Shown: piece by piece, positions 42,031 to 63,363 of the stretch
Numbering within the stretch: position 1 is the stretch's first letter
Layout: the number at the start of each line of letters is the position of its first letter
IMG/VR virus record: IMGVR_UViG_2818991472_000001
Coordinates: 91,260 to 155,259 of that record
Source: a virus
Taxonomy: Duplodnaviria; Caudoviricetes
Direction: 5' to 3' (one strand)
Length of the DNA stretch: 64,000 bases
Program-made: the position numbers and the translations under genes
Notes under the pieces: generated by a model
What the model saw: only the letters and a program-made list of their open reading frames with translations
Database searches by the model: none
What the model was told of the DNA's origin: nothing

Positions 42031-42422
42031 CAGGCGGCCCTGGCGGCCGGACCGGCCGGGGCGAGGGCGAGCTGGCCCTGTTCGGCGAGGGCCAGCAGGC
42101 GGATGAGTCCCTGGGTGGCATAGGAGGCGACCGGGTTGGTCTCGCTGACGCCCATGCGGCGAGCGACGTCCTTCTCCAGCATGTTCTCGAAGAGGAACAT
42201 GCGGATGGCCTGGGCCTGCCTCGGACTGAGGACGGGTTCGCGCTGGCCCTTGGCGTTGGCGCGGGTGGCCTGGGACGCCGTGTAGAGGTGGGTGATGTCG
42301 TGGATGCAGTAGTCCTGGCCGTCGAGCCCGGTAATGACGTCGGGGCCGCCTACCTCGTAGAGGGAGCGCCAGGATTGCAGGTTCCGGAACATCTCCCTGA
42401 GAACGGTGACGGAAATTGGCAT
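42030..42422 (-). CDS. sigma-70 region 4-like HTH protein
   Basis: LSPRQAQAIRMFLFENMLEKDVARRMGVS...YATQGL.RL. Confidence 0.75.
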   Translation of the reverse strand: MPISVTVLREMFRNLQSWRSLYEVGGPDVITGLDGQDYCIHDITHLYTASQATRANAKGQREPVLSPRQAQAIRMFLFENMLEKDVARRMGVSETNPVASYATQGLIRLLALAEQGQLALAPAGPAARAA

Positions 42423-42582
42423 GGTGGTACCTCGGCAGGGTTGCGGGTGGGCGCGCTGATGGCAGGTCGCGCGCTCTCCGAGGCCGACCGTGGCAGTCGG
42501 TCGGCATTTTTGACACTGGTAATACTAACGAGGCTTGCGAGTTCCATTAGGTATTTCACGGAGGTGTCGGACAGGGGCCCGG

Positions 42583-43272
42583 TCAGAAAACCGTGGCATC
42601 CTTGATCCTTTGTCCCAGTTTGGACATGTCTGCTACGAGCTGTTCCGCCGCTCGCGAGAGTGCTGCCCGGAAGACCGCGTGATACCGGTGCTCCAGCGCG
42701 GCTGCCCGGCCGCGCTGGGTCCGCTCCTCGACGGTGACCCTCCCGGACGGGGCGATGAACCCGGTGGCCATGGCCTCCTCCCAGCGGACCTTGGCCAGCA
42801 TCGCCTCCGCCCAAGCCACGGTCGACCGCTGCCCCCACTCGACTCCCATGGCCGCGATGCGCATCAGGAAGTCCTCGCGCTCGCGGTCGGTGAGTCGGCT
42901 GTAGTCCTCGATGTAGGCGCCGGAGGGGGTCTTCTTCCAGTGGGGCCAACCGTAGACGTCGACCCGGACAGCACCGGTCTCTGGGTCGTGTTCGGGCTCG
43001 CGTACCAGCGCCCACAGCTCGTTCATGAGGAGGAAGGCGTCGGGGAAGAGCCTGCGGATCGCTCCCTCGGCCACGGCGAGGACCCCTTGGACGAGGGGCG
43101 CGTCCTCCGGTGTCCAGTCCGTACGCATCCGGGACAGGCCGAACTTCAGGTCGCGCGTGCGGTCGGGGTCGGTCTCGACTGTGAGGGGTGCGTCGGGCTC
43201 GACGGAGATCTCGGCGACGACCCGGGCGGCCTGGTCGGCGGCCTGGCGGGGGTCAAGGGCTTCGGTGGTCAC
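42583..43272 (-). CDS. hypothetical phage protein
   Basis: coupled to the upstream nuclease gene. Confidence 0.7.
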   Translation of the reverse strand: MTTEALDPRQAADQAARVVAEISVEPDAPLTVETDPDRTRDLKFGLSRMRTDWTPEDAPLVQGVLAVAEGAIRRLFPDAFLLMNELWALVREPEHDPETGAVRVDVYGWPHWKKTPSGAYIEDYSRLTDREREDFLMRIAAMGVEWGQRSTVAWAEAMLAKVRWEEAMATGFIAPSGRVTVEERTQRGRAAALEHRYHAVFRAALSRAAEQLVADMSKLGQRIKDATVF

Positions 43273-43964
43273 TCGGCCGTCTCCCTCTGCTTCAAATCGA
43301 ACAGGTGAACGAGTCCGAGCATGATGGCATCCCGAACGTGTTCGTTCCAGGAGGACGACGGGGGCGGCTCGGGGAAGTACCGGCCGACAGCCTCTTTGAC
43401 CTGCCGCTTCGTGATGGTTGTGCCCTTCGGCACAGGCCCCACCAGCACGCGCTTGGCGTGCCGGTTGGAGACCAGGACCGCCCGGCCGTCGGTCTCTTCG
43501 TAGACCACCAGCCCTGCGAGGAGCGCTGAATCGGTGCGGTGTCCGGTGACGGAGGGGCGCTCGAACACGTAGTGCGGTTCGCTCCCGAGGTGGGGCTGCG
43601 TCCTGGCAAGGACCTGTCGAACTCCCCGACGGATCTGGGCCGCCTTGGCGTAGCTGCCCTCATGGGAGGTGAGCGCGGTCTCGGCCGGGCGTACGGTTTC
43701 GGTGTAGGCGATCCGGAGTCCGGCGCCGGGGAGGTGCGTGATCACCGCCGTGCCGGTGTTGCTGGTCGTCTGGTCGAACGCCAGCACGCAGCCGTAGGCG
43801 AAGTCCCGTGGGATGGGGGCCTGCCAGGTGGGCTGGCGCCTGCGTGCCTGCTCCTCGATCTCGTGGACGGTGTCGAAGACGAGCTGGCCGCGCTGGGCCG
43901 GGATGAGCGGGCGGCCGGACCCAGAAGTGTTCCGCGCGGAACGGTTTTGGTCTGGCGGGGTCAC
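43269..43964 (-). CDS. RuvC-like resolvase
   Basis: VLAFDQTTSNTG, VFERP, K...TKRQV, HVRDA. Confidence 0.75.
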   Translation of the reverse strand: MTPPDQNRSARNTSGSGRPLIPAQRGQLVFDTVHEIEEQARRRQPTWQAPIPRDFAYGCVLAFDQTTSNTGTAVITHLPGAGLRIAYTETVRPAETALTSHEGSYAKAAQIRRGVRQVLARTQPHLGSEPHYVFERPSVTGHRTDSALLAGLVVYEETDGRAVLVSNRHAKRVLVGPVPKGTTITKRQVKEAVGRYFPEPPPSSSWNEHVRDAIMLGLVHLFDLKQRETAE

Positions 43965-44797
43965 GGGGTTCCCCTCTTGATCGGGCAGGCGGTGGCAGGG
44001 CAGCGGCGGGCGCGGGCGCCGCCGGGGCAGCAGGCGACTGGCGGGACCTGTCCGGCGTCGACGTAGTTGCGTACGGCGCGGTACTTCGCTTCGAGGGCGA
44101 CGATGTACTCCTCGTCGCGGGGGATGGTGAACTCCTTCATCGGCCAGCCCTGGGACAGCCCGAGGAAGAGCACCAGAGCCTGGCGCTTGCCGGAGAGTGC
44201 CATGTACTCCTGCTGCTGGCCGTAGTAGCCGGGCCACCTGGCCTTGAACGCGGCCAGGTCGTGGTCCTGGATGCCCTTGATCACCATCGGGCTGCAGGTC
44301 TTGAGGTCGTAGATCCCCTCGCCCCAGGTGGGCAGCGTCAGCAGGCCGTCGAGGTGGCCCCGGCGGCGCAGCACGGGGTCGATGACTCCCCACTCCCCGC
44401 ACTGCCCGGCGTCGCGCCCGTGAGGTCGGCCGCAGGCGACGCACGTGCCCTTCGGCGGGCTCAGGACGCCGATCTCGGTGAGGGCGGCGGCCATCAGGTC
44501 GTGGGTGGCGGTGCCCATCATCACGGCCATCCGGCTGCCGTACTCGAACGGCTCGCGTATCCACCGGTCCGGCTCGGCGAGGTAGTAGTACAGCTGCCGC
44601 TCGTCCATCGTCGGGTGGGTGGAGGGGTGGAACCAGCCGTCCGGGGGGCGGTCGGCCTGGTAGTTGCGGAAGGTGACCTCGAAGACCTCGGGGAACCGGC
44701 AGTCGCGGATGGCGGCTTCGACCAGGGGGACGAGGTGGAGGCGGGTCAGCAGGTCGACGGTACGCCGAAACGCCGGGGTGAACGGCTTGGTCACCAT
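43961..44797 (-). CDS. Cas4/RecB-like PD-(D/E)xK exonuclease
   Basis: HPS, GTATH, GHLDG, YDLKT, QQQEYM, C-terminal Cys cluster. Confidence 0.8.
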   Translation of the reverse strand: MVTKPFTPAFRRTVDLLTRLHLVPLVEAAIRDCRFPEVFEVTFRNYQADRPPDGWFHPSTHPTMDERQLYYYLAEPDRWIREPFEYGSRMAVMMGTATHDLMAAALTEIGVLSPPKGTCVACGRPHGRDAGQCGEWGVIDPVLRRRGHLDGLLTLPTWGEGIYDLKTCSPMVIKGIQDHDLAAFKARWPGYYGQQQEYMALSGKRQALVLFLGLSQGWPMKEFTIPRDEEYIVALEAKYRAVRNYVDAGQVPPVACCPGGARARRCPATACPIKRGTP

Positions 44798-45255
44798 CCC
44801 TTCTGCGCCTCCTCCAGGAGCGTGTTCGCCTCGGCGATGACGACGTCCAGCCATTCGGTGTCGGCGGTGTCGGGGTGGACGAGGCGCTTCAGGATGGGCT
44901 GGGCTGCCTCCCAGAGACGGGCGGCGCCCAGCAGGTCGGCGAAGTCGTCGAGCAGGCTTACGGCCAGGTCGGCGTGGACGTCCGCGAGTGTGCGGTCGGT
45001 GTAGAAGCGCAGGGCCAGCATCGGCCGCTCTCCCCCGGCCTGCTCGACCGCCTTGTGCCACATGGCCAGCGAGACGGACAGCGACTTGGCCAGGGTGCTC
45101 TTCGCGTCGGCGGCGAAGGCGTACTCGGTGTCGAGGCGGTTGTGCCGGGCGTCGATGGGGTCGCGCCACTGGTTGCCGCTGCCCCGGCTGCGGCGCATGC
45201 CCAGGCGGTCGGCTACGTGCTGCTCGTGCCCGTTGCCCATCTTCTGGTTGAGCAT
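44791..45255 (-). CDS. PD-(D/E)xK Holliday-junction-resolvase-like nuclease
   Basis: HEQHVADRLG...GSG...D...DAKST. Confidence 0.65.
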   Translation of the reverse strand: MLNQKMGNGHEQHVADRLGMRRSRGSGNQWRDPIDARHNRLDTEYAFAADAKSTLAKSLSVSLAMWHKAVEQAGGERPMLALRFYTDRTLADVHADLAVSLLDDFADLLGAARLWEAAQPILKRLVHPDTADTEWLDVVIAEANTLLEEAQKGW

Positions 45256-45527
45256 CAGGCCCCCTTCGCGAAGGTGCGCTTGCACAGGACTTCCTCGGCG
45301 GGCCAGATGAGGAGGTCGTCGCCGTCGTGCACCGGGGTTCTGTGGCACGAGCAGGTCAGAGCCGGATCACCGTCGGCTCGGACGTAGGTGACGTGGTACG
45401 GAGGGTGCTCCGGCAGAACCGGGCGCGGCCTGGAGGTGAGCTGGCGCTGTCTCAGCTTCAGTACAGCCAGGACGACGAGGGTGGCGACGAAGCAGAAGAC
45501 CACGCCGTCGAGAGCCGTGCGGATCAT
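45255..45527 (-). CDS. small membrane-anchored protein
   Basis: N-terminal hydrophobic helix, CSCH; coupled at both ends. Confidence 0.6.
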   Translation of the reverse strand: MIRTALDGVVFCFVATLVVLAVLKLRQRQLTSRPRPVLPEHPPYHVTYVRADGDPALTCSCHRTPVHDGDDLLIWPAEEVLCKRTFAKGA

Positions 45528-46615
45528 GCCGCGTACTCCTCGTCGTCGTACGTGACCTCGTGCTCTGGGACGATCTCGCCGCTGACGGTGAGCAGGGCGC
45601 GCTGCCGGACCAGCTCGGTGAGTTCGGGCTTCTCCCGGAGGGCCTGCTTGACGTTGGCCCGGCCGACGATGTGCGTGCCGTCGGGGAGGCCGTACTTGCT
45701 GGCGTTGATCCGCTCGATCGCGCCGGTGGCGATGCCCAAGTTGAGTGCTTCGTCGGCCCGGTCGATGCCGATCGGCCCCCAGGTCGGGTGGTCGGCGGAG
45801 AACAGCCAGAAGTCGGCGGCGCGGCCCGGCGGCGCGAACTTGTTCCGGACGACCTTGGCGCGGAGCTGGCGGCCGATCTCCTCGTCCTTGACGGACTCGG
45901 AGACGGCGTCGGCAACCGGCACCTTGACGACTGGTTCGCCGGTCCTCTTCAGCTCGATCTTGGTCGTGGTGCAGTACTTGAGGATGTTCGGCCCGGCGCT
46001 CTTCTGGCCTCCGCGCGGGTTGCCGATGTCGGCCCTGTACTGGTTGACGAAGATGACCATGGCGTTCTTGGCCCGGCACAGGCTGGCGACCTGCTTGACC
46101 ATGCGGGAGATGACCTGCGAATTCTTGCCCATGGCGCTGTCCTCGGCGCTCTTCTCGAACGCCGCCTTGCTCTCCATGCCGCCGATCGAGTCCAGGCAGA
46201 CGACGGAGATGTCTCCGCTGCGCAGCAGCATCTTGGCGATGTCAGCGACGTCTTCGCTGTGGTCCGGGTAGATGTGGACGAAGCGGTCCTCGTCGAGGTC
46301 AAGGCCGAGTTTCTGGGCGTAGGCGAAGTCGAAGCTCTGCTCCATGTCGATGAGGGCGACGCCGCGATCGGGGAACATCTTCTGCGCGGAGGCCATGATC
46401 AGGGTGCAGAGCGAGGTCTTGCCGACGCCTTCCGGGCCGAGGATCTCGTGGGTGCGCCGCAGGGCGAGCCCTCCGATCCGCAGGGCGTGGTCGAGGGTGA
46501 TGGACCCTGTTGGCACGGCGACGGGCCGGGTCATGTCGTCGCGTCGCGTGACCTTGTCCCCGAAGGCTTTGGTCATGTCGGCGCGGAGTTTGCTGAGGCC
46601 CTTGGACGGGGGCAT
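45524..46615 (-). CDS. recA: phage-type RecA recombinase
   Basis: PTGSITLDHALRIGG, GPEGVGKT, IDME, LDS, FVNQYR, VVRNKFAPP. Confidence 0.9.
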   Translation of the reverse strand: MPPSKGLSKLRADMTKAFGDKVTRRDDMTRPVAVPTGSITLDHALRIGGLALRRTHEILGPEGVGKTSLCTLIMASAQKMFPDRGVALIDMEQSFDFAYAQKLGLDLDEDRFVHIYPDHSEDVADIAKMLLRSGDISVVCLDSIGGMESKAAFEKSAEDSAMGKNSQVISRMVKQVASLCRAKNAMVIFVNQYRADIGNPRGGQKSAGPNILKYCTTTKIELKRTGEPVVKVPVADAVSESVKDEEIGRQLRAKVVRNKFAPPGRAADFWLFSADHPTWGPIGIDRADEALNLGIATGAIERINASKYGLPDGTHIVGRANVKQALREKPELTELVRQRALLTVSGEIVPEHEVTYDDEEYAA

Positions 46616-46666
46616 GCGTCTCCTCTTGGCAGGGTTCGGTGGGCCGCTCGTGGCAGGGCGGGCGGC

Positions 46667-46954
46667 TCAGATTTCTTGGCGGAGGATCTCGCTGGCCCGG
46701 CCGGGCGGCCAGCCGACGGCCTGCTCCAGGAGCCAGAGGCGCGGCAGCCAGTAGCCCTCGGAGTTGTAGTCGGAGGCCGAGGGCACGTCGTCCGGGTGGC
46801 CGTAGACCCGGCCTCGTTCGAGGCGCAGGATGCTTCGGTCGGTGGACTTCATGACGGTGCCGACCTGCTTCCGCGTGAGGCCCGCAGCGACGCGGGCCTG
46901 CTCGGCCTCCCGGCCCAAGCGCCTCCAGGCGTCGACGGGGTGTTCCTCGCTCAC
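46667..46954 (-). CDS. XRE-family HTH protein
   Basis: WRRLGRE...ARVAAGLTRKQVG...LERG...LEQAVGWPPG. Confidence 0.75.
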   Translation of the reverse strand: MSEEHPVDAWRRLGREAEQARVAAGLTRKQVGTVMKSTDRSILRLERGRVYGHPDDVPSASDYNSEGYWLPRLWLLEQAVGWPPGRASEILRQEI

Positions 46955-47547
46955 TGCTCGTCCGCCGGGGTGGCGATGGCGCGGACGGTGTCGGCGAAGG
47001 CGCCCGCGACGGTGTCGCAGGCGTGCTCCAGGGCTTCCGCCGGGACGCCGAGGCCGTGCAGCTGCTGCAGGGCGGTGATGTACAGGTCGGCGATGCTGGA
47101 GATCTGGGCCCTCAGCTCTGCTCGGTTGGCGGGGAAGGGGAGGGTGGCCAGCCTGGTGAGGTCGGCGTCGGCCTGCTCCTGGGTCAGGTGCTCCCAGAGT
47201 CCGGGGCTGGAGGTCGGGCCGCCCGTGGAGACGGGCTCGGGCTCGGTGACGACCTTCACCGGACGGTCGAGGATGCGCAGGGAGGTGCCCCGGCCCCACT
47301 GGAGTGCCCTGTCGATGTTCGGCAGGAGGGGCATCAGGTTCTGGGGGGAGGCGTACGGGTGGCGGCTGACGCGGCCCTCCAGGAGGGCGGAGACCTGGTC
47401 GCTGGTGGCGTCGATGGCGTGGGCCAGGGCCTCGCGGTTGTCGTACTGGGACGGGTAGTCGCTGGTGATCTCCCGGCCGAGGCGAGCCCAGTCGGTCTTG
47501 CTGAAGGCGTAGGGGTCGATCGCGGTGTCGAAGCTCTCGGTGGTCAT
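46951..47547 (-). CDS. XRE-like HTH protein, paralog of 46667..46954
   Basis: WARLGRE...LLEGRV..HP...IDRALQWGRG...IL. Confidence 0.7.
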   Translation of the reverse strand: MTTESFDTAIDPYAFSKTDWARLGREITSDYPSQYDNREALAHAIDATSDQVSALLEGRVSRHPYASPQNLMPLLPNIDRALQWGRGTSLRILDRPVKVVTEPEPVSTGGPTSSPGLWEHLTQEQADADLTRLATLPFPANRAELRAQISSIADLYITALQQLHGLGVPAEALEHACDTVAGAFADTVRAIATPADEQ

Positions 47548-47558
47548 GCGGGTCTCCT

Positions 47559-51200: not shown

Positions 51201-51297
51201 CGGCAGGATTCCCCGGCTGCAGGTGGCAGGTGGCAGGTGGCCGGGCCCGGCCGCGACTCGTGGCAGGCGAGTGCGGCCGGGCTGCTGGGGCCGAGCG

Positions 51298-52296
51298 TCA
51301 GTAGGGCGGCTCGTCGATCTCGGAGGCCGGGTGCTGCGGGGCCGACGACGGCGAGCCCATGCCTCGGATCTTGGCCCGCAGGTCTCCGCTCATCCGGGGC
51401 TTGGCCGGTGAGGCCCCGAGATCGGTGAGCGCGTTGCCGCCCTGGCCCGTGGCCACGACGTTGCCGTCCTTGTCCAGCTCGAACCGGGGGTCGAAGAACC
51501 GCGCGTAGTAGGCGTCGGACGCCTTCTCACCGATGATGGCGGCGAGGTTGAAGCTCCTCGTGTCCAGGGTCTGCAGGTACCGGTCCCAGGCCGGGGTGCC
51601 CGGCTTGAGGTCGGGCACCGGGTCGAGGCTGCTCACCTGGTAGGCGGTGTCCTTGCCGGTACCTTCCCGGGAGACCTTGTAGTCGCGGTCGCAGACGGTC
51701 TTGTGCAGGCCGTACATCTGCCGGAAGTGCGCGAAGAAGGTCTTCATCGGCTGGTTGATCACGATGATCTTCGGGAAGCGGTGGACGGCTCCGGTCGGCT
51801 GGCCGTCCTCGCCCGTCTCCTCGACCTGGACGGTCTTGTCCCGGATGCCGACGATGACGCCGAGCTTGGACGGGCCGCCGAGGGCCTCGCTGCCGTCGCC
51901 CTTGACCAGCTCGCGCTCGACCGCGAAGGCCCAGGCGCGGATCTGCGGTGTGGCGAGGTGGCCGAAGTTATTGCGCAGCTTGTTGTCGCAGATGTAGCAG
52001 CCGTCGAAGTGGCTGGCGAGCGCCTCGTCCTTGCGGCAGACGGCGGTCATCGACCGGGGCCAGTTGTCGACGCCTTCGGGGGCAGCCTTGGTCGGCACGA
52101 AGGAATGCTGGTCGACCCAGATCAGCTCGGGGTCGTCGGTCAGCATGCGAAGGATGATGCTCTCGCCGTCTTCGATCCCGAAGTACTCGGGCCCGTTGCT
52201 CCGCCGGGACTGAGCGGCCTTTCGGGCCTCGTCCTCGGCGGCGCTGGCGGCGTGTCCGCCGGTGCGGAAGCTGAAGGAAGGCGTGTTGGCAGTCAC
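51298..52296 (-). CDS. probable phage single-stranded DNA-binding protein (gp32-like)
   Basis: DGES..LR.L, H, C...CYIC, DRDYKVSR.GTGKDT.Y, acidic tail; between primase and DnaE. Confidence 0.6.
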   Translation of the reverse strand: MTANTPSFSFRTGGHAASAAEDEARKAAQSRRSNGPEYFGIEDGESIILRMLTDDPELIWVDQHSFVPTKAAPEGVDNWPRSMTAVCRKDEALASHFDGCYICDNKLRNNFGHLATPQIRAWAFAVERELVKGDGSEALGGPSKLGVIVGIRDKTVQVEETGEDGQPTGAVHRFPKIIVINQPMKTFFAHFRQMYGLHKTVCDRDYKVSREGTGKDTAYQVSSLDPVPDLKPGTPAWDRYLQTLDTRSFNLAAIIGEKASDAYYARFFDPRFELDKDGNVVATGQGGNALTDLGASPAKPRMSGDLRAKIRGMGSPSSAPQHPASEIDEPPY

Positions 52297-52351
52297 GCAT
52301 TTCTCCTGAATTCTTGGCAGGGTTTTTAGGGGGGGTACATCAGGTGAAAAT

Positions 52352-53086
52352 TCAGAGAGCAGCAGCGGTGGCAGTCGCGGCAGCAATCAGGAGTGGCGAG
52401 GGGTTCAGGTTTTCGTGCAGCAGGAAAATATGGACCCCGTCCACCTGGTGGATCTGGTATGCGTCGCTGTTGGCGCGATGGAATCCGACCGCCAGGCGGC
52501 GGATGGGTTCGCATCCAGCGAGTGCCGTGGCGAGATCCTGCTGCCAGAGGGCCAGCCTGTCGATGTCATCGCAGGTGGTGGCCTTGAGGTAGTAGGAGTA
52601 GCTCCACGGCGGGGTGGTTATTGGTCCTTGCCCATCAAAGCGTTGGGGTTCTGCGGTGTCAAGGCGCGAATCGCCTTCTGAATCTAGGTTGGCAGCGAAT
52701 GAGATACCCAGAGATGAAAGCATGTCGAGAGCTGTCGTGAAATTGCCTGCGGCGCTGTGCTGGGCGGCGATCGGCGCAGCGTGTCGCAGGAGGACTTCCA
52801 GGCTCCAGCGATCAGGGAAGAAGCCCTGCCAGGTGGCGTCGTAGGCGGCGCGGGTCCGGGGGTTCCACAGCTGCTTGAAGATGTAGGTGAGGCGGGGGCT
52901 TCCGGTGCCCCGGGCCTGGTAGGCGGCGAACAGCTCGGCGCGGGTGGCATGGGTGGGGACACCCAGCTCGGCGTAGTAGCCGTTGACGTCGGCGACGGGT
53001 GGCGCCTCGTACCGGGCCAGTTCGGTGGAGAGGCTGAGGGCTGCCCTGGCCGGGTCGCCGACCAGGATCAGCTCCTCCCCCGCCAT
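52352..53086 (-). CDS. J-domain-like protein without HPD
   Basis: YYAELGV...AT..EL..AY...L.NP..RAAYD. Confidence 0.65.
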   Translation of the reverse strand: MAGEELILVGDPARAALSLSTELARYEAPPVADVNGYYAELGVPTHATRAELFAAYQARGTGSPRLTYIFKQLWNPRTRAAYDATWQGFFPDRWSLEVLLRHAAPIAAQHSAAGNFTTALDMLSSLGISFAANLDSEGDSRLDTAEPQRFDGQGPITTPPWSYSYYLKATTCDDIDRLALWQQDLATALAGCEPIRRLAVGFHRANSDAYQIHQVDGVHIFLLHENLNPSPLLIAAATATAAAL

Positions 53087-53226: not shown

Positions 53227-53265
53227 CCTCGGCCTCCTGCTGTCGTCGGTCACCCCTTCGTGGTG

Positions 53266-54369
53266 TCAGGCGGGGGGATGGCAGGGCTGGCCGGGGTGGG
53301 CGTGGCGGTGGCAGCGGTGGCAGAACAGCTGGGCGGGGCGTTGCCAGACGGGCCAGGGGACGGCGGCTTGGTGGATCAGGGCCTCCGCGCTGGGGGTGTC
53401 CAGGTCTGCAGGGTCGGCTGCGTACGGGCTGTCGACCACGAGGACGTTGTGGCGGCGTGAGGTCTTCTCGGCGATGCCTTCGAGGTAGTGACCGCGCTCG
53501 GTGAAGCGGGACTCGGTGGCGTTCCACCCGGCGGTGTCGTTGTCGAGCCACCAGATCAGGGTCTCCGCCCAGGGCGGGACGAGGTCCAGCTGCCGGTCGG
53601 TGATCTCAGCACCGAAGGTGGCCCGCATCGGGATGGCCAGGCCGTGGCGCAGGACGCTCATCGGGGATTCGACCATGACGAGGCAGCGCCCGGTGACCTC
53701 GGGGAAGGGGTTGTAGAGGGTGGAGTCCTTGGGGAAGCCGGGTGTGTTGAGGTACTTGGGGGTGCCGTCGCGCTCCAGCCGTCGGGACTGCCAGCCGACG
53801 AGATTGCCGTTCCAGCGGTGCGGGATGACGGCCCGGCGGCCCATGTAGTTGCCCTCTCGGTCCCGGCCGGGCGGGGAGCTGCAGATTCCGGCGCGGGAGG
53901 CGTTGGCCTGCGGGATCTGGCGCTCGCCGAGGATGTAGTCGGGGATGCCCTGCCAGGGGGTGAGGACCTGGTCTGCGTAGCGGGGCAGTGGCTCTGGGCG
54001 GGTGGGGGTGTAGATGCTGTCGAAGAGGTTGAGCAGGTCGGGCAGCTCCATGGCCCGGTTGAGTCCTGCCTGCCCGGTGAGCCAGGCGCGGGCCTGCTCG
54101 ACGGTGGTGTCCTGGACGGTCGCGATGAGCCACAGGGCGGTGCCGCCGCTGCCGGAGAAGCAGTTGTAGAGCCACCGGTCCCAGTTCAGGGAGGCGGTGG
54201 GGTTGCGGGCCTGGTCAGTGTGGTGGGGACAGACCAGGCAGCCGTGGATCAGTTCCGTGCCGCGCCGCTGGATGTTGGTAGCGCCCAGCTCGGCGAGCAG
54301 GTCGAGGGCGAGGCGTTCCTTGTGGGCGTCCGGCAGGGCGACCAGGTCGTGGAGGTCACTGCTGCTCAT
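53266..54369 (-). CDS. DNA primase (Zn-binding + TOPRIM)
   Basis: C...H.D..PTAS...YNCF, VGWQSR, PKYLNT, VES, LDNDTAG, DPAD. Confidence 0.9.
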   Translation of the reverse strand: MSSSDLHDLVALPDAHKERLALDLLAELGATNIQRRGTELIHGCLVCPHHTDQARNPTASLNWDRWLYNCFSGSGGTALWLIATVQDTTVEQARAWLTGQAGLNRAMELPDLLNLFDSIYTPTRPEPLPRYADQVLTPWQGIPDYILGERQIPQANASRAGICSSPPGRDREGNYMGRRAVIPHRWNGNLVGWQSRRLERDGTPKYLNTPGFPKDSTLYNPFPEVTGRCLVMVESPMSVLRHGLAIPMRATFGAEITDRQLDLVPPWAETLIWWLDNDTAGWNATESRFTERGHYLEGIAEKTSRRHNVLVVDSPYAADPADLDTPSAEALIHQAAVPWPVWQRPAQLFCHRCHRHAHPGQPCHPPA

Positions 54370-57362: not shown

Positions 57363-57745
57363 CGGGCGAGTCGCTCGGCGATGACGGCGGCGAAGTACGG
57401 GTCGCTGTTCTTGCAGAACCGCAGGGGGGTGACTGGGGCGTCGCGCCACTGGCCGTCGCAGTGCTCGTAGGCGAAGCGGGCGATGGCGGCGGCGTCGGTG
57501 CCCCACCGAGTGGAGAAGCCTTTGAAGATCCCGGCGATGCGCTCGGCCGGGATGGTGGCGTAGGGGATGCGACGCTCCGTGAGCTGCCGCAGGACGTAGT
57601 CCCGCAGCTCCTGCCACGTCCAGTCGGTGTCGGCCGTCAGGAGGTCGGCGGAGCGGACCGTACTGGCTGTCGTGGCGATCGGAGGCGCAGCGGGCCGCGA
57701 AGGGCCGGAGGAGACGTGGAGGGGTTCGGACAGGTCGAGGAGCAT
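57359..57745 (-). CDS. hypothetical protein, first gene of the replication operon
   Basis: GGAG RBS; coupled to the loader gene. Confidence 0.7.
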   Translation of the reverse strand: MLLDLSEPLHVSSGPSRPAAPPIATTASTVRSADLLTADTDWTWQELRDYVLRQLTERRIPYATIPAERIAGIFKGFSTRWGTDAAAIARFAYEHCDGQWRDAPVTPLRFCKNSDPYFAAVIAERLAR

Positions 57746-57897
57746 GGCAGGGTTCTCCAACCGTGGCAAAGGGCTGGTGGCACGCTCAGGTGGCAGTCTG
57801 GGCGCGCTGGGGTGCTCGTGGTGGCAGCACGAGCGTGGCGTTCTCGACGCTATCCGGGGGACTTGGCGGTGGCAAGCGACTGACAGGCTTGAAGATC

Positions 57898-57939
57898 GAA
57901 AAAGGCGGTGGTGGGGCTCGTTCGAGTCCCACCACCGCC
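57898..57939 (-). terminator. intrinsic terminator
   Basis: 12-bp stem GGCGGTGGTGGG/CCCACCACCGCC followed by TTTTT on the minus strand. Confidence 0.75.
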
Positions 57940-57956
57940 GGTGCGCAGCCGGGGGT

Positions 57957-58820
57957 TCAGCTCTTCGGGCTGTGCATGCAGGCCACGTGGAGCGAGACGC
58001 CGCCGCCCTGGACGACGAAGTACCGTCCTCCGGGCACGCTCAGGCAGGTACACCGGCCGGAGTTGTCGATGGTCTCGGTGGTGGTGCCGAGCGGCATCCA
58101 GTCCTGCTCGAAGATCGTGAGGGTTCCGTCGGTGTAGAGGATGCCGTCTTCCTCGGCCTGGACGACCAGGGGCGCGACGGACCAGCCCTGCAGGACGAGC
58201 AGGTGGGTGAGGGCCTGGTGGAGGAACTCACGGCCCCGGGTCCGGATGACGGTGCGGTCCAGGCCGCCACCGGCGTCCGGGAACGGCTTGCGGGTGCCGC
58301 CGCCCACGAAGGCGTTGAGCAGCACGTTCAGCTGACGGGGGGAGAGCGTGCCGAGGGCTTCGATCAGGCGCTGGTCGGCGATCTGCTGCCAGACCTTCCG
58401 GCCGCCCTGGGGTAGGTCGGGTCCGGTGGCCTGCTGGAGTGCGGCACCGGTCATGATCAGCATGTCGTCGGTGACGGCGGGGGCCTCCGGCTGTGCGCGG
58501 CGTCGGGGTGCGGTGAGCAGCCGGGTGTCGGCGGTCGCGCTGCTTGCTGTGAAGTCGGTCAGGTCGTGCTGGACGGCCTCGTGGCCGTGGTGGAGCGTGA
58601 GCAGGTCGTGGTTCCTGCCGTGCCAGGCGGTGGCGGGGCCGCTGACGGGCGCGGAGATGACGCCGTCCACGCGGCGCCAGGTGGCGTGGCCGTCGTCGTC
58701 GGTGGAGAGGATTTCGGTGCCGACGAGGAACGGGGCAACCTCGGCGTTCACCAGGCCGGTGCGGGCGATGTAGTACGGCTGGGGGTCGCGGATGATCACG
58801 GGCTCGGTTCGGGAGGTCAC
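57957..58820 (-). CDS. free-standing degenerate intein-like (Hint + LAGLIDADG remnant) protein
   Basis: VGTEILS.D..G..TW..V...HDLLT...H and IDNSGRCTCLSVPGG.YFVV resemble Hint N/C blocks. Confidence 0.55.
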   Translation of the reverse strand: MTSRTEPVIIRDPQPYYIARTGLVNAEVAPFLVGTEILSTDDDGHATWRRVDGVISAPVSGPATAWHGRNHDLLTLHHGHEAVQHDLTDFTASSATADTRLLTAPRRRAQPEAPAVTDDMLIMTGAALQQATGPDLPQGGRKVWQQIADQRLIEALGTLSPRQLNVLLNAFVGGGTRKPFPDAGGGLDRTVIRTRGREFLHQALTHLLVLQGWSVAPLVVQAEEDGILYTDGTLTIFEQDWMPLGTTTETIDNSGRCTCLSVPGGRYFVVQGGGVSLHVACMHSPKS

Positions 58821-58828
58821 GGTGTCTC

Positions 58829-59326
58829 TCAGGAGTGGTGGGAGGGGCGGGCCGGACGGGGGTTCACGCCGTAGGTCCTCGCGATGCTGATGCAGACGTT
58901 GACGGCGTTGACGAGTGCGACCCCGTCGATCACCTGGTTGTAGGCCAGGACGTGCGCGAGCCGCTCGACGTCCGGGATGGTAAGGCGGAGTTCACCAGGT
59001 TCGGTGCTGCGGCGCGCTGCACTGAAGCTGCGGCCCTTGCGGAACTTGTACGGGAACGCTTCCTGGCCCGGGTAGACGTCCTTGCCGTATCGGCGGTGGC
59101 CTCGGTGCCACTCTGGGGCGTCGGCCTTGCCGAAGAAGATCGTGCCGACCTCGCGCGGGTTGAAGTGCGGGAACCGGAGGGGCGGGTAGCCGTCCGGGAC
59201 CTCGGTCCGGGTGTCGAGCGGGAACTGGTCGTCCTGGAAGAGGCTCCCGCTGCTCGGCACGGGTGTGGGGCCGTCGAGGTCGGCCGAGGCCACCACCAGG
59301 GGGTCCTGGGGGGTGTCGCTCATCAT
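58829..59326 (-). CDS. hypothetical protein (possible DNA-binding)
   Basis: GGAAGGAAG RBS; FNPREVGTIFFGK...TIPDVERLAH. Confidence 0.65.
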   Translation of the reverse strand: MMSDTPQDPLVVASADLDGPTPVPSSGSLFQDDQFPLDTRTEVPDGYPPLRFPHFNPREVGTIFFGKADAPEWHRGHRRYGKDVYPGQEAFPYKFRKGRSFSAARRSTEPGELRLTIPDVERLAHVLAYNQVIDGVALVNAVNVCISIARTYGVNPRPARPSHHS

Positions 59327-59390
59327 GTCGCTCTTCCTTCCGGAGGTGGTCGCCGGGCCACGCGGTTGATCGGTGGCCCGGCGGGTCGTT

Positions 59391-60119
59391 CTAGGCAGCG
59401 GGCGTGGCGGATCGCAGGTGGATGCTCAGGCGCCCCGGAACCAGGGTGGTGATCTTGGGGATCAGGGCGGCGGCACGGCTGCGGGTGCGGCGGCCGAGCA
59501 GGAACCTCCGGAAACGGTCCTCGTCGAGCACCCGGCTGGGCGCGGTGACGGCCAGGTAGTCGGCGCGGCTGATCGTTCCGTCTGCCAGCCCCTGCTCCAG
59601 GAGGGCCTGGCTGGGGGTGTTGGTGTCGGCGGTGGCCTCGCGGGTCCACATCATGCCGGTGCCGTCGATCAGCTGCTCCTCCCGGTCGCCGGGCTGGGCG
59701 GTGCGGTAGTGGCCCTTGCCGTCGCGGGGGGTGAGGTCGGTCGCCGTGCCCGTGTTCTCGGACACGACGTCGAAGTGGGTGGAGACGATCTCGCTGATCT
59801 CCTTCCTGCGCCGCTCAACGGCGGTCTGGACCGCGTCGAGGGTGCGCTTCTCCTCCAGCAGGCGCTTCAGCTCGGTCGCGCGCAAGGCACGGCGGGTGGC
59901 GGGCGCGACGCACTTGAAGACGGCGGGGACCTGGCCGAGAGCCTGCGCGAGGTCGTCGGGGACCTTGGTGACAGCGGGCATCTTGGAGACGGTGGGCTTG
60001 GCCGGGGCGGCGGGTGTGGTGGTGACGAGCTTCGTGAGCATCTCAGCGAGCGACGTGGTGCCGTCGGTGGCGTAGACGGCGACGTCAGCGGTGAAGGTGG
60101 GCACGAGTGCGGTGGTCAT
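59391..60119 (-). CDS. hypothetical phage protein
   Basis: GGGAG RBS; behind a motif A promoter. Confidence 0.75.
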   Translation of the reverse strand: MTTALVPTFTADVAVYATDGTTSLAEMLTKLVTTTPAAPAKPTVSKMPAVTKVPDDLAQALGQVPAVFKCVAPATRRALRATELKRLLEEKRTLDAVQTAVERRRKEISEIVSTHFDVVSENTGTATDLTPRDGKGHYRTAQPGDREEQLIDGTGMMWTREATADTNTPSQALLEQGLADGTISRADYLAVTAPSRVLDEDRFRRFLLGRRTRSRAAALIPKITTLVPGRLSIHLRSATPAA

Positions 60120-60168
60120 GGCAGGGTTTCTCCCTTTGGCAGGTAAGGGGGCCGTACTGGCAATAATC

Positions 60169-60197
60169 AAGCTACCCTGATATCTAGGTGACGTCAA
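60169..60197 (-). promoter_or_regulatory. promoter with operator motif A, copy 4
   Basis: TTGACG-N17-TAGCTT containing ACCTAGATATCAGGGT. Confidence 0.8.
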
Positions 60198-60202
60198 TAT
60201 GA

Positions 60203-60237
60203 GAAAAGGCCGGTAGGAGAATTCCCCTACCGGCCTT
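60203..60237 (-). terminator. intrinsic terminator after the DinG-family gene
   Basis: AAGGCCGGTAGG/CCTACCGGCCTT with a short T-tract on the minus strand. Confidence 0.7.
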
Positions 60238-60256
60238 CACAGGCTTGAAGATTCAT

Positions 60257-62407
60257 TCAGGAGGCAGCGCCGAGGGCCTCGCGCCAGGCAGCGTAGTAGG
60301 TCTTGACGTCGTCGAGGGACGTGGTGACCGGCGCCGGGGGGAGCCCTCGGACGATGTTCTTGCCCCAGTGGGTGGTGGACAGGCGGGGGTCGAGGATGGC
60401 GACGATGCCGTAGTCCGTGACGGTGCGCAGGAGTCGGCCGAAGCCCTGTCCCAGGGTGAGCATCATCAGGGGCAGCGCCAGCTCGGCGAAGTCGTTGCCG
60501 CCGCGCTCCTTGATCTTCTTGGAGCGGGCCGCGATCACCGGGTCGCTGGGGACAGCGAAGGGGAGCTTCATCATGACGACGAGGCGGTTCGTGTCGCCCG
60601 GGAAGTCAACGCCGACGAAAAACGACTTCATGCCGAACAGGACGCTGTCCTTCTGCTCCTTGAACTTCTGGGCGATCTCCTTGTTGGTGTGGTCCTTGCC
60701 CTGCATGTACACGGGGAACCCGGCGGCCCCGATGCGCTCGGCCAGCAGGTTGTAGGCCGCGATCATGTCGGTCTTCGAGGTGAAGAGCAGCATGGCTCCG
60801 CCTCGGGCGGCATCGCGGACGAGCATGGCGATGGTCTCGATGGCCCAGGTCTGCCAGGCGGCGCGGGCGTCCTTGTCCTTGGCGGAGGGGATGGGCATCG
60901 GCTCGCCCGCCTCGGTCTTGGCGCCGGGGACGTACATGAGCATCTGCCGCTCGTAGTCGAAGGGCGTGCCGACGTCGAGCGTGGTGGCCTTCTCCAGGCC
61001 GAGCGTCTTGGCCGCGTAGCTGAAGCCGGAGTTGCCGGTGCTGAGGGTGGCCGAGAGGATGACGGCCGAGGTCTCGTTCCACAGCTCCTCGCGGAGGATG
61101 GGGCCGACTTCGATGGGGCACGCGGTGAGGGCCCAGCGGGTGACCTGCTCCCCGGTCTTCTTGCTGCGGGCGGTGTAGGTCTCGGGCCAGGCGACCATGT
61201 CGATCTCAGGGGCCTCCAGGACCCGGGCGATGTTGGTGAGGTAGCTCTCGCCGAGGGTCAGCAGGCGCTTCTGCTTCGTGCCCTGGGCGCCCTTCTCACC
61301 CTTGGTGATCTTGGCGGCCTTGATCTTGTGCCAGGCGCGGGTGATGGCCTGGGTGAGGGCCTCGAAGACGGGGTAGTGCTCCTCGACGAAGTCGACGTCG
61401 AGGGTGGCTCCTTCGATCTCCATGAGCTTGACGACGATCTCGCGGATCTCGACGAGCTTGGCCTGGATCGTCTCGACGAGCTTCTCGGTGTCGCGGATGG
61501 CTTCGAGGTCACGTTCGGCGTTCTCGTCGTCGGTAGCGCTCTGGAGGGTCACGAAGTTCAGGGCCTGGTCGGCCCAGGCGAGGATGCCGCCCTCCTTGAC
61601 CTCGAAGCCGAGGGTGCTCTGGGCGGTCTCGGGCAGTTCGTGGCCCTCGTCGAAGATCATGAGGTCGCGGTCGCCGAGGATGACGGACTCGCCGATGCCG
61701 TTCTCGTTGCTCTCGGCGATGGACATCTTCACCTTGACGTCGAGCATCGCCATCTTGTGGTTGGTGACCACGATGTTGGCCTCGGCGGCCTCGTCCTTGG
61801 CCTTGTAGCCGAAGCAGGTCTGGCCGAACGCGCAGCCGGAGCGGCCGGGGCACTCGTTCGCGCCGACGGCGACGTGCCTCCACTCCTCGGGGGCCACCGG
61901 GGTGGTGAGGGTGTCGCGGTCGCCGGTGGAGGTGGAGCCGTCGGCCATCGTCTCCTCGATGAGGTCGGCCAGGTTGGCGACCTGCTCGGAGGTGGCCTCC
62001 TGCAGCTTGTCCTTGCAGACGTACTGCCCGAGGCCCTTCAGCGGCGCGTAGGTGAAATCGACCGGGAGGTGCTCCTTCAGGAACGGGAGGTCCTTCTCCA
62101 GGTACTGGGTCATCAGCGCGAGGGTGGAGGTGGCGATGACGACCCGGCCTCCGGCGATCCGGCCGTTGCGGCTGACGCCGAGGATGGCCGGGATCAGCGC
62201 GCCGAGACTCTTGCCGGTGCCGGTACCGGCTTCCGCGAGGAGGTGCTGGGGGGCCGGGTCCGTCTCGCAGGCGGTGATGACGGCTTCGATCGCGGCGGCG
62301 AGCTTCTGCTGGGCCGGGCGGGCGGTGTAGCCGGGGAGGCGGGAGGCCAGGACGTTCTCGGCGTCGGCGAAGGTGCGGAGCTGGGGTTCGGGGGTGGCGG
62401 TCGTCAT
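60257..62407 (-). CDS. DinG/YoaA-family ATP-dependent helicase
   Basis: RPAQ, EAGTGTGKS, Fe-S Cys, VTNH, FDEGH, SATL, GVDFPG, KLPF, QGFGRLLR. Confidence 0.93.
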   Translation of the reverse strand: MTTATPEPQLRTFADAENVLASRLPGYTARPAQQKLAAAIEAVITACETDPAPQHLLAEAGTGTGKSLGALIPAILGVSRNGRIAGGRVVIATSTLALMTQYLEKDLPFLKEHLPVDFTYAPLKGLGQYVCKDKLQEATSEQVANLADLIEETMADGSTSTGDRDTLTTPVAPEEWRHVAVGANECPGRSGCAFGQTCFGYKAKDEAAEANIVVTNHKMAMLDVKVKMSIAESNENGIGESVILGDRDLMIFDEGHELPETAQSTLGFEVKEGGILAWADQALNFVTLQSATDDENAERDLEAIRDTEKLVETIQAKLVEIREIVVKLMEIEGATLDVDFVEEHYPVFEALTQAITRAWHKIKAAKITKGEKGAQGTKQKRLLTLGESYLTNIARVLEAPEIDMVAWPETYTARSKKTGEQVTRWALTACPIEVGPILREELWNETSAVILSATLSTGNSGFSYAAKTLGLEKATTLDVGTPFDYERQMLMYVPGAKTEAGEPMPIPSAKDKDARAAWQTWAIETIAMLVRDAARGGAMLLFTSKTDMIAAYNLLAERIGAAGFPVYMQGKDHTNKEIAQKFKEQKDSVLFGMKSFFVGVDFPGDTNRLVVMMKLPFAVPSDPVIAARSKKIKERGGNDFAELALPLMMLTLGQGFGRLLRTVTDYGIVAILDPRLSTTHWGKNIVRGLPPAPVTTSLDDVKTYYAAWREALGAAS

Positions 62408-62452
62408 GGTGGCAGGTTCCCCTCGGCAGCGGGTGTTGGTGGCAGGAATTGC

Positions 62453-62482
62453 AATTTAGCAACCGTGATATCTAGGTGTCAA
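62453..62482 (-). promoter_or_regulatory. promoter with operator motif A, copy 5
   Basis: TTGACA-N18-TAAATT containing ACCTAGATATCACGGT. Confidence 0.8.
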
Positions 62483-62560
62483 TATGATTCCTGGAACTGG
62501 TGCTCGGGCGTGGCCGGGTTCGCTCGAACGCTCGTTCTTGCGTCGTCGCAGGTGAGGGGT

Positions 62561-62618
62561 TGTGGACACGCCGGGGCGCCAAGAGGGGGGTATGCGTGCA
62601 TCCACAGGCTGTGGACGA
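62561..62618. promoter_or_regulatory. three DnaA-box-like 9-mers
   Basis: TGTGGACAC and GCATCCACA-ggc-TGTGGACGA versus consensus TTGTCCACA. Confidence 0.4.
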
Positions 62619-63234
62619 GTAGGGTTAGCCCCGCAGCGCGCGGGTGCCTTGTCGCTAGAGGCCCCTGCGCTGAAGGCCGAGTGCGTGCCCTGGGTTGGCC
62701 CCCGGGAAACGCAAGAGGCCCCCGGGAGACGGATTGGCTGTCCGACGCATCCGGGGGCTCCGACAACCACCCGCCGCTAGTGGGTGTCGCGTTGTCGGTG
62801 GCCGCGCAACCTTTCGTCCTCAAAACCCTGAGGAGGTCGCTGGCATGCACCAGCGTACCCTGCGGCGGGCCGCCGCGAGTACCCCACGCCGATTCGACAC
62901 GCCACGCGCTCTGGGGCTCACGGCGTCGCTCTCCCCATCAGCCGCTCTGATGAGGTTGAATGCTGTCCAGGTTCGGATCGCCCGCCAAGCACCGCAACCG
63001 TCTGCTTCACCTGCCACACCTGCCACCACCACCACCGTGGGCGTCGCCACCGCGCACGGGCTTCGACAGGACGTTCGTACGATGCTGCCTTCAGAAAACA
63101 GTGACGGGCGGCCTCTCACCTGCCACGGAGAGAGCCGCCCGTTCACAGCCAGCTCCAAGGAGCGGCGAGGTGGTAAGGGGATGACCCCTTGCCCGGTCAG
63201 GTCCGAAACTGCCGATCCGGACCTGCTGCGGCGC

Positions 63235-63290
63235 GCGGTTTGTTCAACCAGGCCGTCACCGCTCAGTAGTGCGGTTTGTTCAACCAGGCC
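63235..63290. repeat. two perfect 20-bp direct repeats (iteron-like)
   Basis: GCGGTTTGTTCAACCAGGCC at 63235 and 63271, upstream of the Rep-like gene. Confidence 0.7.
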
Positions 63291-63363
63291 ACCACTGGCC
63301 ACAGCCGCCTTCTAAGCGCATCGCGTCGATCTCAAACCCTGCCAAGGAAGAAAAGACCAACAC

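Follow-up and report, generated by a model that had tools for sequence, protein, structure and literature searches.

The hexamer CUGCCA (CCGCCA in its family form) is, on balance, probably a cis-acting RNA element that is read in trans and sets translation initiation. As proposed here, the element would be found in a family of Streptomyces phage-plasmids, in 5' leaders and in the spacers between cistrons of early and middle genes, where it would mark genes of unknown function as well as replication, recombination and regulator genes. The motif would be displayed single-stranded, either in the loop of a short hairpin or within an unstructured C-rich stretch, with the last copy placed immediately 5' of the Shine-Dalgarno (SD) sequence or abutting the start codon. 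A lineage-specific trans-acting reader, probably an RNA-binding protein that the phage encodes and that works as a dimer or oligomer, would bind these sites and set translation initiation for the whole gene class. Such a reader could repress, by locking the SD hairpin or blocking the ribosome (as T4 RegA, MS2 coat protein or CsrA do), or it could activate, by opening the SD hairpin as Mu Com does. The window is the whole stretch of 64,000 nucleotides that was analysed, part of a 155-kb element, and its sites are collected in Table 1.

CTGCCA is the top-ranked hexamer in the upstream-sense intergenic DNA of the entire 155-kb contig, with about 36-40 copies. The 36 copies observed compare with 8.6 expected from the rest of the element (Poisson p 3e-12) and with 15.3 expected under a third-order Markov model. 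The density is 1.58/kb in upstream-sense DNA versus 0.37/kb on the other strand of intergenic regions, and 0.30/kb (sense) and 0.39/kb (antisense) in CDS, a strand and region bias of 4-5-fold; the intergenic/CDS split follows our own GC3-based gene calls and may have placed a few coding copies among the "intergenic" ones. The orientation of the motif tracks the gene strand for genes on both strands, and the + strand copies that precede a + strand gene (12719..13058) indicate that it follows the gene and not the replicon. The leaders of the host (n=2234) are not enriched in CTGCCA (0.24/kb sense versus 0.30/kb antisense). An earlier note on this DNA had the motif clustering on the coding strand of the leaders named in Table 1 and proposed a strand-specific comparison of intergenic and coding DNA, and for CTGCCA the comparison bears it out. 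The degenerate form given there, (C/U)UGCC(A/G), has to be abandoned: TTGCCA (5 versus 2 copies) and CTGCCG (0.95/kb versus 0.56-0.87/kb) lack enrichment, and CTGCCG is also not preferentially unpaired. Two TTGCCA copies occupy ordinary promoter positions; one, at 57870-57875, more likely serves as the -35 in a promoter of the form TTGCCA-N17-TAGCGT, and the other (60158-60163) closely follows a -10. The supposed restriction to replication and recombination genes also fails, since many copies precede early genes of unknown function to the left of the window. The class that makes up the regulon is one of early/middle genes rather than of replication genes.

The sense strand of the leaders is 40% C and the core is short, which would favour a by-product of C-rich composition, or chance. 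This reading carries almost no weight and is already contradicted: the count is 2.4-fold over the third-order Markov expectation from the same leaders, the one-base variants of the motif are neither enriched, nor unpaired, nor in loops, and the pattern is family-wide, with a lineage-specific variant.

Table 1. Motif sites and hairpins along the window (copies are CTGCCA unless stated).
Feature	Position	Strand	Observation
Leader of sigma-region-4-like gene (42030-42422)	42423..42520	-	two hairpin-loop copies
Sigma4-like leader, copy	42491-42496	-	7-nt loop, 8-bp hairpin
Sigma4-like leader, copy	42460-42465	-	loop, 6-bp hairpin
Sigma4-like leader, CTGCCG (degenerate)	42433-42438	-	directly precedes SD
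recA leader	46616..46672	-	46651-46656 in hairpin loop; 46627-46632 unstructured, directly 5' of SD
dnaE leader, intercistronic	51201..51297	-	51261-51266 in loop of 15-bp hairpin
dnaE leader, tandem copies	51231-51236, 51224-51229	-	
dnaE leader, CTGCCG	51201-51206	-	abuts ATG
SSB-like gene leader	52287..52386	-	three copies
SSB-like leader, copy	52369-52374	-	within 3' end of upstream gene
SSB-like leader, copy	52315-52320	-	5' of SD
SSB-like leader, copy	52287-52292	-	just past GTG start
Last codons of primase-like gene	53254..53330	-	53318-53323, 53309-53314, 53279-53284; 30-70 nt upstream of next small gene
Replication operon leader (128-aa protein, DnaC-like loader, DnaB)	57745..57880	-	fold z-score -2.5
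Replication operon leader, copy	57822-57827	-	7-nt loop, 7-bp stem
Replication operon leader, copies	57791-57796, 57745-57750	-	in loop; fused to ATG
242-aa gene leader	60119..60170	-	60137-60142, loop of 5-bp hairpin with 3' arm part of SD; 60119-60124, fused to ATG
DinG-type helicase leader	62408..62452	-	62440-62445, 62410-62415; unstructured; downstream of predicted promoter 62453-62482
Long region upstream of divergent gene starting at 63364	63005..63363	+	four copies: 63011-63016, 63020-63025, 63120-63125, 63339-63344
Outlying copy 3770-3775	3753..3800	-	directly 5' of SD-like stretch and ATG
Nested antitoxin-like frame inside polyvalent-protein gene	36575..36590	-	36585-36590, then SD-like G run, then ATG of the frame
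Leader of + strand gene	12719..13058	+	12719-12724 (loop of 5-bp hairpin), 12888-12893, 13040-13045
Hairpins of the earlier note, confirmed	42483..42505, 42451..42474, 46643..46666, 51246..51281, 57783..57803, 57814..57834, 60132..60149, 63112..63132		motif in loop

The predicted probability of being unpaired is 0.71 for CTGCCA versus 0.37 for the other hexamer windows of the same leaders (p 7e-9), and the corresponding values for the motif of the related element pRLB1-9.1 are 0.68 and 0.36 (p 4e-13). Control hexamers differing by one base show no unpaired excess in the same folding test. Loops on stems of at least 5 bp hold 8/36 copies here versus a 9.5% background (p 0.018), a modest excess, and 28 of the 71 copies of pRLB1-9.1 versus a 10% background (p 1e-10), a strong excess. 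Only about 1/4 to 2/5 of the copies in this element lie in a clear hairpin loop, and the remaining mode of display is an unstructured C-rich stretch. The eight hairpins listed earlier are all present in the minimum-free-energy folds. Hairpins are strand-symmetric, and consequently the folds alone cannot separate sense RNA from antisense RNA or extruded DNA; in interrupted stems, G-U and A-C mismatches are equal (11 versus 12).

About ten related phage-plasmids carry CCGCCA in places equivalent to those of CTGCCA here, and in 9 relatives CCGCCA ranks first or nearly first among hexamers. Nearly all copies are switched in this element (17 CTGCCA versus 3 CCGCCA over the same 28 kb); the relative nearest to it has a mixture of both. 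For dozens of sites to change by one base in concert implies that they co-evolved with a specific reader. In orthologous leaders (sigma4-like gene, recA and a 330-aa gene; up to 11 relatives) the loop is kept and the stems differ, and RNAalifold gives compensatory pairs (3/6 and 3/9) with U-G wobbles on the sense strand. The sigma4-like leader of the relatives has the orthologous two-hairpin arrangement with CCGCCA loops, and their recA leader has 2-3 CCGCCA hairpins at the equivalent place. In many relatives a small hairpin is closed by the motif loop and the SD forms its 3' arm, the anti-SD run being paired.

The conserved core comprises 6 nt only, with no information content outside it and no second conserved box within 40 nt on either side. 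These observations bear on the improbable reading in which the motif is a DNA-level site, either an operator or roadblock for a DNA-binding protein, asymmetric and pointing along transcription as the Cluster A stoperators do, or a site for a host regulator. Stoperators are equally co-oriented with transcription and intergenic, several HTH proteins are encoded nearby, and TGGCGG, the complement of the family form, presumably resembles the core of the Streptomyces AdpA consensus. However, TGGCAG, the form in this element, breaks the AdpA core, and CTGCCA and CCGCCA elements encode sigma4-like proteins with an identical recognition helix. The 6 conserved nucleotides lack any extension, a constant spacer between variable inverted repeats is the opposite of what selection by a dimeric DNA binder gives, and some copies lie within operons, are fused to start codons or form part of SD hairpins. 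A sigma-70-type or MotA-type promoter element is rejected, as no -10 stands at a fixed downstream spacing (TANNNT at +12 to +30 of the motif in 0/36 copies here and 1/71 in pRLB1-9.1). The strand rule, the unpaired motif, the covarying stems, the flanking of the SD and the absence of a second box strengthen the earlier view of a conserved loop on variable stems recognised at the RNA level, and suggest translation as the controlled step. The antitermination half of that view is not supported, nothing arguing for it.

The copies peak 9-30 nt and 0-2 nt before the start codon and leave the SD slot free, so that the motif flanks the SD and never occupies it; the last copy does touch the RBS or the start codon, as first noticed. 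A leader usually holds 2-4 copies, whose spacing clusters at 18-33 nt. Over the ten elements screened, 32/87 start-proximal copies lie in a hairpin of at least 4 bp with the SD in the 3' arm (8/30 in pRLB1-9.1, 2/13 here, and 1/6 to 4/6 in the other eight loci). The kept loop, the co-varying stems and the SD within the 3' arm are the features of a generic translational operator hairpin.

The motif could instead be an RNA processing or decay signal, cut where it is exposed near RBSs by a sequence-specific endoribonuclease of the phage (like T4 RegB) or of the host, which we consider unlikely. Polycistronic early transcripts would be dissected, or early mRNAs inactivated late in infection, and the ATG-fused copies would yield leaderless mRNAs, which actinomycetes translate well. 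The single-stranded motif in intercistronic operon spacers and the several copies that abut a start codon agree with cutting, and RegB, which targets a short motif at early-gene RBSs, offers a parallel. On the other hand, the motif is not avoided in CDS: CTGCCA has 0.30/kb in sense here versus 0.24/kb in pRLB1-9.1, which uses another form as its motif, and CCGCCA has 1.54/kb in pRLB1-9.1 versus 1.43/kb here. The regular tandem spacing and the SD-sequestering hairpins fit binding better, and no nuclease candidate is linked to the motif.

A direct ribosome signal acting without a dedicated factor, as a translation enhancer or standby site through pairing with rRNA or through binding of a ribosomal protein, is very unlikely. 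The motif is start-associated and exposed, and pairing to a G in an rRNA partner would survive the U-for-C change. Nevertheless, the host 16S rRNA has a single exact complement, UGGCGG at nt 37-42, which we take to be inaccessible, buried in a helix close to the 5' end. The motif is not used by host genes, and nothing would drive all copies in concert towards the weaker wobble form.

The region 63005..63363 bears on the possibility of an RNA reader, which we hold improbable as well. The complementary UGGCAG (UGGCGG in the relatives) would be exposed in loops and engage the leaders by kissing or seed pairing, the candidate being an antisense or counter-transcript from 62.9-63.35 kb, ahead of the divergent gene. 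All of the replication regulon would thereby be tied to copy control of the plasmid type. Complements cluster outside the antisense strands of leaders only on the minus strand of 63011-63344, one copy (63120-63125) is the loop of a strong hairpin (63106-63140), and the equivalent region of pRLB1-9.1 has the same four-copy arrangement with CCGCCA, thus four UGGCGG in the same orientation. Such a reader would automatically co-vary with one of its target leaders. Against it, no promoter or terminator is predicted for the transcript, and no conserved non-coding RNA was found by blastn (this element against pRLB1-9.1) or in Rfam. Copy 63339-63344 stands 5' of the SD of the + strand gene, a standard position that makes the sense reading simpler. 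The stretch 63000-63220, once viewed as a sponge RNA, may be one; a leader or an antisense transcript would be just as plausible.

The preferred reading, translational control by a reader of the motif, would call for a dedicated factor, which we infer to be encoded by the element. Profile searches for the RegA, CsrA, RRM, CSD, Com (PF10122), ProQ, S1 and KH families gave no match on the element; across the whole genome, neither CsrA (PF02599, E<=1) nor RegA (Translat_reg, PF01818) was matched. No RNA-binding lead came from Atlas look-ups or from scanning the ORFs called at 39-64 kb against Pfam and PHROG. Rfam cmscan of the whole window (E<=1) returned three chance matches to miRNA models elsewhere and none at the motif, and the literature, as far as searched, holds no description that matches it. 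Within the reach of these searches, the regulon may still be called undescribed, as it was at the outset. It is close to an even question whether a reader, protein or RNA, from outside the known RNA-binding families recognises the 6-nt loop motif and was re-tuned by one base, with nearly all sites following. With such a re-tuned reader, each phage-plasmid of about 155 kb could quite conceivably hold a dedicated post-transcriptional system with some 20-65 RBS-adjacent target genes.

Start-associated motifs that extend over a phage genome have been known since 2011 (PMC3203893). The present family offers a cleaner test case for their mechanism, as its motif is short, lies in loops with clear structural covariation, is often physically coupled to an SD-sequestering hairpin and comes in two natural specificity variants (CUGCCA and CCGCCA) that can be swapped in reporters. 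Identifying the reader could bring to light a new RNA-binding regulator of actinomycete phages and would explain the post-transcriptional gating of replication genes in temperate phage-plasmids. The element might also serve as an orthogonal translational switch in Streptomyces engineering. For annotation, the motif helps to locate true start codons, including that of the nested antitoxin-like frame at 36575.

Among known systems, CsrA/RsmA also uses a short motif in the loops of variable hairpins, with several copies 10-60 nt apart, the last at the RBS, and a sponge-RNA logic is conceivable in both. The sites of CsrA/RsmA are GGA in hairpin loops, one over the SD, whereas C(U/C)GCCA lies adjacent to the SD in a phage-borne regulon. 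The comparison drawn in the earlier note therefore holds as a functional analogy only, the genome having yielded no CsrA gene, and membership of a CsrA/Rsm regulon is rejected: there is no GGA loop over the SD and no CsrA-family protein. T4 RegA is likewise a phage factor acting on the translation-initiation regions of many early and replication mRNAs, but its sites are AU-rich and overlap the AUG, and a RegA operator regulon does not fit a genome lacking a PF01818 protein. The MS2/PP7 coat proteins recognise the loop of an RBS-containing hairpin by its sequence, although MS2 operators are single sites, unlike the multi-copy motif; Mu Com opens an inhibitory hairpin. Cluster A stoperators share many asymmetric intergenic sites co-oriented with transcription; they are duplex DNA repressor sites of 13-14 bp, whereas here only 6 positions are conserved, single-stranded and with hairpin covariation, and a stoperator-type operator (a conserved duplex site of about 13 bp) is rejected.

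The closest known analogue is found in the start-associated sequences (SAS) and ESAS of Cluster K mycobacteriophages (Pope et al. 2011, PMC3203893; 188-genome survey, PMC12699233). The SAS spans 13 bp, includes the SD itself and occurs once per gene; its authors judged that the inverted repeats of ESAS do not support RNA pairing, and contrasted SAS with stoperators (PMC3203893). Both SAS and CTGCCA are phage-specific, short and asymmetric, lie in one orientation immediately upstream of starts, a few bases from the start codon, occur on orthologous and non-orthologous genes, non-structural ones only, and are missing from host DNA. In each of the two, sub-lineages vary at single positions. Membership of the Cluster K SAS is nevertheless rejected, with no match to the GGGATAGGAGCCC consensus (13 bp, <=2 mismatches, SD included); the sequences are unrelated and the host genus is different. 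In contrast to SAS, CTGCCA is a 6-nt core without conserved flank, present in multiple copies, that flanks but never replaces the SD, is exposed in loops whose stems show compensatory changes, and often tops a hairpin sequestering the SD.

The element is a 155-kb contig (69.6% GC) within a 10-Mb Streptomyces-type genome, and the window corresponds to its right 64 kb. Its closest annotated relative is pRLB1-9.1, a 154-kb circular plasmid of Streptomyces sp. RLB1-9 that encodes capsid, baseplate and ParA/ParB. Gene calls are our own, based on GC3 and ribosome-binding sites. Every gene between 39 and 62.4 kb lies on the minus strand, so that for most motif copies the coding strand of the earlier note means the minus strand. 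Relatives were found via RecA homologues, which gave about ten elements on 150-157 kb contigs plus the complete pRLB1-9.1; dozens of contigs in the size range of about 150-157 kb came up in one of these searches. The SSB-like protein as query returned no related loci among genome contigs or viral contigs, the GTDB genus genomes searched for relatives gave no match, and phage records gave DnaE matches only, all distant.

Features of the element and its relatives (window coordinates unless a locus of a related element is named; L001 is pRLB1-9.1)
Feature	Position	Strand
Sigma-region-4-like gene, DUF7236	39-62.4 kb	-
RuvC-like, exonuclease, resolvase genes	39-62.4 kb	-
RecA, two HTH proteins, DnaE	39-62.4 kb	-
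SSB-like gene, primase-like gene	39-62.4 kb	-
DnaB, DnaC-like loader	39-62.4 kb	-
Several unknown-function genes, DinG-type helicase	39-62.4 kb	-
Gene divergent to DinG-type helicase	start 63364	+
Nested antitoxin-like frame, start region	36575-36590	-
330-aa gene leader	41021-41083	-
14-mer ATCTTCAAGCCTGT	57883-57896; 60239-60252	-
Predicted sigma-70-type promoters	62453-62482; 60170-60205	-
SD-plus-ATG string GGAGGTCGCTGGCATG	62830-62847	+
SD-plus-ATG string GGAGGTCGCTGGCATG, pRLB1-9.1	L001 ~3662-3680	-
20-bp direct repeat	63235-63254; 63271-63290	+
About 100-nt dnaE-leader hairpin	L004 3914-4039; L007 3615-3742; L008 4095-4220; L001 16490-16615	
Leader with repeated word TGTCACAAACA	L014 5238-5301	

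In an unbiased ranking of all hexamers over the whole contig, CTGCCA (RNA CUGCCA) takes the first rank in upstream-sense intergenic DNA. The count there is 36; the rest of the element predicts 8.6 (p 3e-12), and 15.3 would be expected under a third-order Markov model of these leaders. The words that rank next are parts of promoter motifs. The probability that leader composition or chance produces the motif is negligible. The density is 1.58/kb upstream-sense and 0.37/kb on the opposite intergenic strand, with 0.30/kb (sense) and 0.39/kb (antisense) in coding DNA. The strand-specific comparison of intergenic and coding DNA thus bears out the clustering on the coding strand that the earlier note had claimed, but not its degenerate form (C/U)UGCC(A/G): TTGCCA and CTGCCG are not enriched in the element by the same comparison, and two TTGCCA copies occupy ordinary promoter positions. 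The assignment to replication and recombination genes holds in part. Those leaders carry copies, and so do leaders of unknown-function genes in the early region to the left of the window, with one to four apiece. The copies that precede plus-strand genes (12719, 12888, 13040 and 63011-63339) are likewise on the plus strand, and the orientation of the motif therefore follows transcription and not the replicon. CTGCCA is not enriched in host leaders (n=2234; 0.24/kb sense versus 0.30/kb antisense). A signal for RNA processing or decay is an unlikely reading, as the motif is not avoided in coding sequence.

The copies concentrate at 9-30 nt upstream of the start codon, on the immediate 5' side of the Shine-Dalgarno sequence (SD), with a second peak at 0-2 nt, abutting the ATG; the SD slot (3-8 nt before the start) holds none. 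Adjacent copies are mostly spaced by 18-33 nt. A role similar to a -35 element or a MotA box is ruled out, because no further position within 40 nt on either side of the motif carries information and none of the 36 copies has a -10-like hexamer at promoter spacing.

The evidence on structure is prediction throughout (MFE folds, stem test, partition-function folding and RNAalifold). The MFE folds contain all eight hairpins proposed from the sequence alone, each with the motif in its loop. By the stem test, stems of at least 5 bp hold 8/36 copies in their loops, compared with a share of 9.5% among all positions (p 0.018). When every leader is folded by partition function, the mean unpaired probability is 0.71 for CTGCCA and 0.37 for all other hexamer windows (p 7e-9), and the control hexamers CTGCCG and, in this element, CCGCCA are background-like. 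These values indicate that the motif is kept accessible in the predicted folds, some copies in loops and others in unstructured C-rich stretches.

In nine relatives it is CCGCCA, and not CTGCCA, that ranks first or close to first among the hexamers of sense intergenic DNA. pRLB1-9.1 has 71 copies (2.99/kb sense versus 0.66/kb on the opposite strand), which extend across the early and replication regions; the virion region has few. Loops of stems of at least 5 bp hold 28 of the 71 (p 1e-10). The unpaired probability of the copies is 0.68 versus 0.36 (p 4e-13), and the control hexamers gave negative results; the elements are kin, and p-values across relatives overstate independence. Orthologous leaders (sigma4-like gene, recA, 330-aa gene) form one to three predicted hairpins with constant loops and stems that differ between elements, and RNAalifold finds in them compensatory changes and sense-strand U-G pairs. 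A recurrent layout runs from an anti-SD run through the CCGCCA loop, the SD and a spacer to the ATG. This SD-hairpin layout accounts for 32/87 start-proximal copies across the ten elements screened: 8/30 in pRLB1-9.1, between 1/6 and 4/6 in the eight remaining loci, and 2/13 in this element, where the two cases are the gene starting at 60119 and one gene left of the window. A DNA-level operator is distinctly unlikely, given a core of only 6 nt, a geometry of conserved spacer and variable arms, and the SD hairpins. G-U versus A-C mismatches in the stems, as a test for the transcribed strand, number 11 versus 12.

The homologous 28 kb of this element contain 17 CTGCCA versus 3 CCGCCA; in the nearest relative (73% RecA identity) the copies are a mixture of TCGCCA, CCGCCA and CTGCCA. 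Of the loci fetched, the two at the greatest distance are L013 (56% RecA identity), where CCGCCA is found only a few times, at canonical positions, and L014 (46%), the most distant, which lacks an enriched motif. Such a concerted one-base change over dozens of sites is difficult to account for other than by one specific partner that reads them all and changed along with them. We slightly favour an RNA operator family through which a lineage-specific trans factor sets translation initiation of early/middle-class genes. The factor would act as a repressor of initiation, in the manner of RegA, MS2 coat or CsrA, or alternatively as a Com-like activator that opens the hairpin.

Several candidates for the molecule that recognises the motif were considered. 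The sigma4-like protein is unlikely, because elements of the CTGCCA and the CCGCCA type show no difference in its HTH recognition helix; its gene is also present in L013 and L014. Models of RegA, CsrA, RRM, CSD, Com, ProQ, S1 and KH have no match on the element, and scanning the ORFs called at 39-64 kb with Pfam and PHROG produced no RNA-binding lead. Two unknown proteins were looked up in the Atlas; the leads were a weak winged-helix/replication-protein-like one and an XRE-HTH one, neither of them RNA-related. Reading by a trans-acting RNA is decidedly improbable: there is no Rfam match, and blastn of this element against pRLB1-9.1 detects no conserved non-coding RNA, its matches being missed coding regions only. 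Mimicry of a tRNA anticodon loop was rejected, as the element has no tRNA genes, CCGCCA has no U33-like position and the loops are of 7-12 nt. Pairing with the host 16S rRNA was also rejected; the single exact complement, which we place in a 5'-proximal helix, is not expected to be accessible. A ribosome signal that works with no dedicated factor is most improbable.

Some leaders depart from the common pattern. The 330-aa gene leader, the sole orthologous leader found without the switch to CTGCCA in this element, retains CCGCCA and has lost both hairpins of the nine relatives. The dnaE leaders of several relatives share a long, imperfect and conserved hairpin without CCGCCA, which is replaced here by motif-bearing hairpins. 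In L014 one leader has a different repeated word, TGTCACAAACA, present twice, and another start-associated signal may be used there.

Both predicted sigma-70-type promoters (TTGAC[AG], 17-18 nt spacer, A/T-rich -10) have a common CCTAGATATCA core across the spacer, and CTAGAT ranks high among the hexamers enriched in the element's intergenic DNA. The two copies of ATCTTCAAGCCTGT are identical; each comes after the stop codon of an upstream gene, at a terminator hairpin or adjoining one, and they head the leaders of the genes starting at 57745 and 60119. Within the polyvalent-protein gene, CTGCCA, a G-rich SD and an ATG stand before the nested antitoxin-like frame, an arrangement that lends independent support to the putative use of this internal start.

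The complementary word clusters only on the reverse strand of 63.0-63.35 kb, and likewise in pRLB1-9.1. A long leader, the sponge proposed in the earlier note and an antisense-RNA template are all possible readings of this region, and promoter and terminator prediction over it gave nothing favouring any of the three. The string GGAGGTCGCTGGCATG is conserved inside the long upstream region of both elements. The frames that follow it (62845-63315 here, 96 codons in pRLB1-9.1) are dissimilar and low in GC3, and the site may be a leader ORF or a transcript start. The perfect direct repeats, 36 bp apart, lie in the 900-bp region separating the divergent DinG-type and 63364 genes; they look iteron-like, and hence a plasmid-type origin is possible.

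Literature searches turned up no description of the motif and nothing specific on phage-plasmid leader motifs. The proposed working mode resembles that of CsrA- and RegA-type regulons, but the motif system belongs to neither. Among described phenomena, the start-associated sequences (SAS) of Cluster K mycobacteriophages, whose function is still to be explained (PMC3203893; PMC12699233), come closest. The motif falls outside the SAS sequence definition. Both systems are start-associated, in a single orientation, restricted to non-structural genes, absent from the host and variable between sub-lineages, whereas the motif described here differs in sequence, length and copy number, and in its predicted loop display and coupling to SD-sequestering hairpins.
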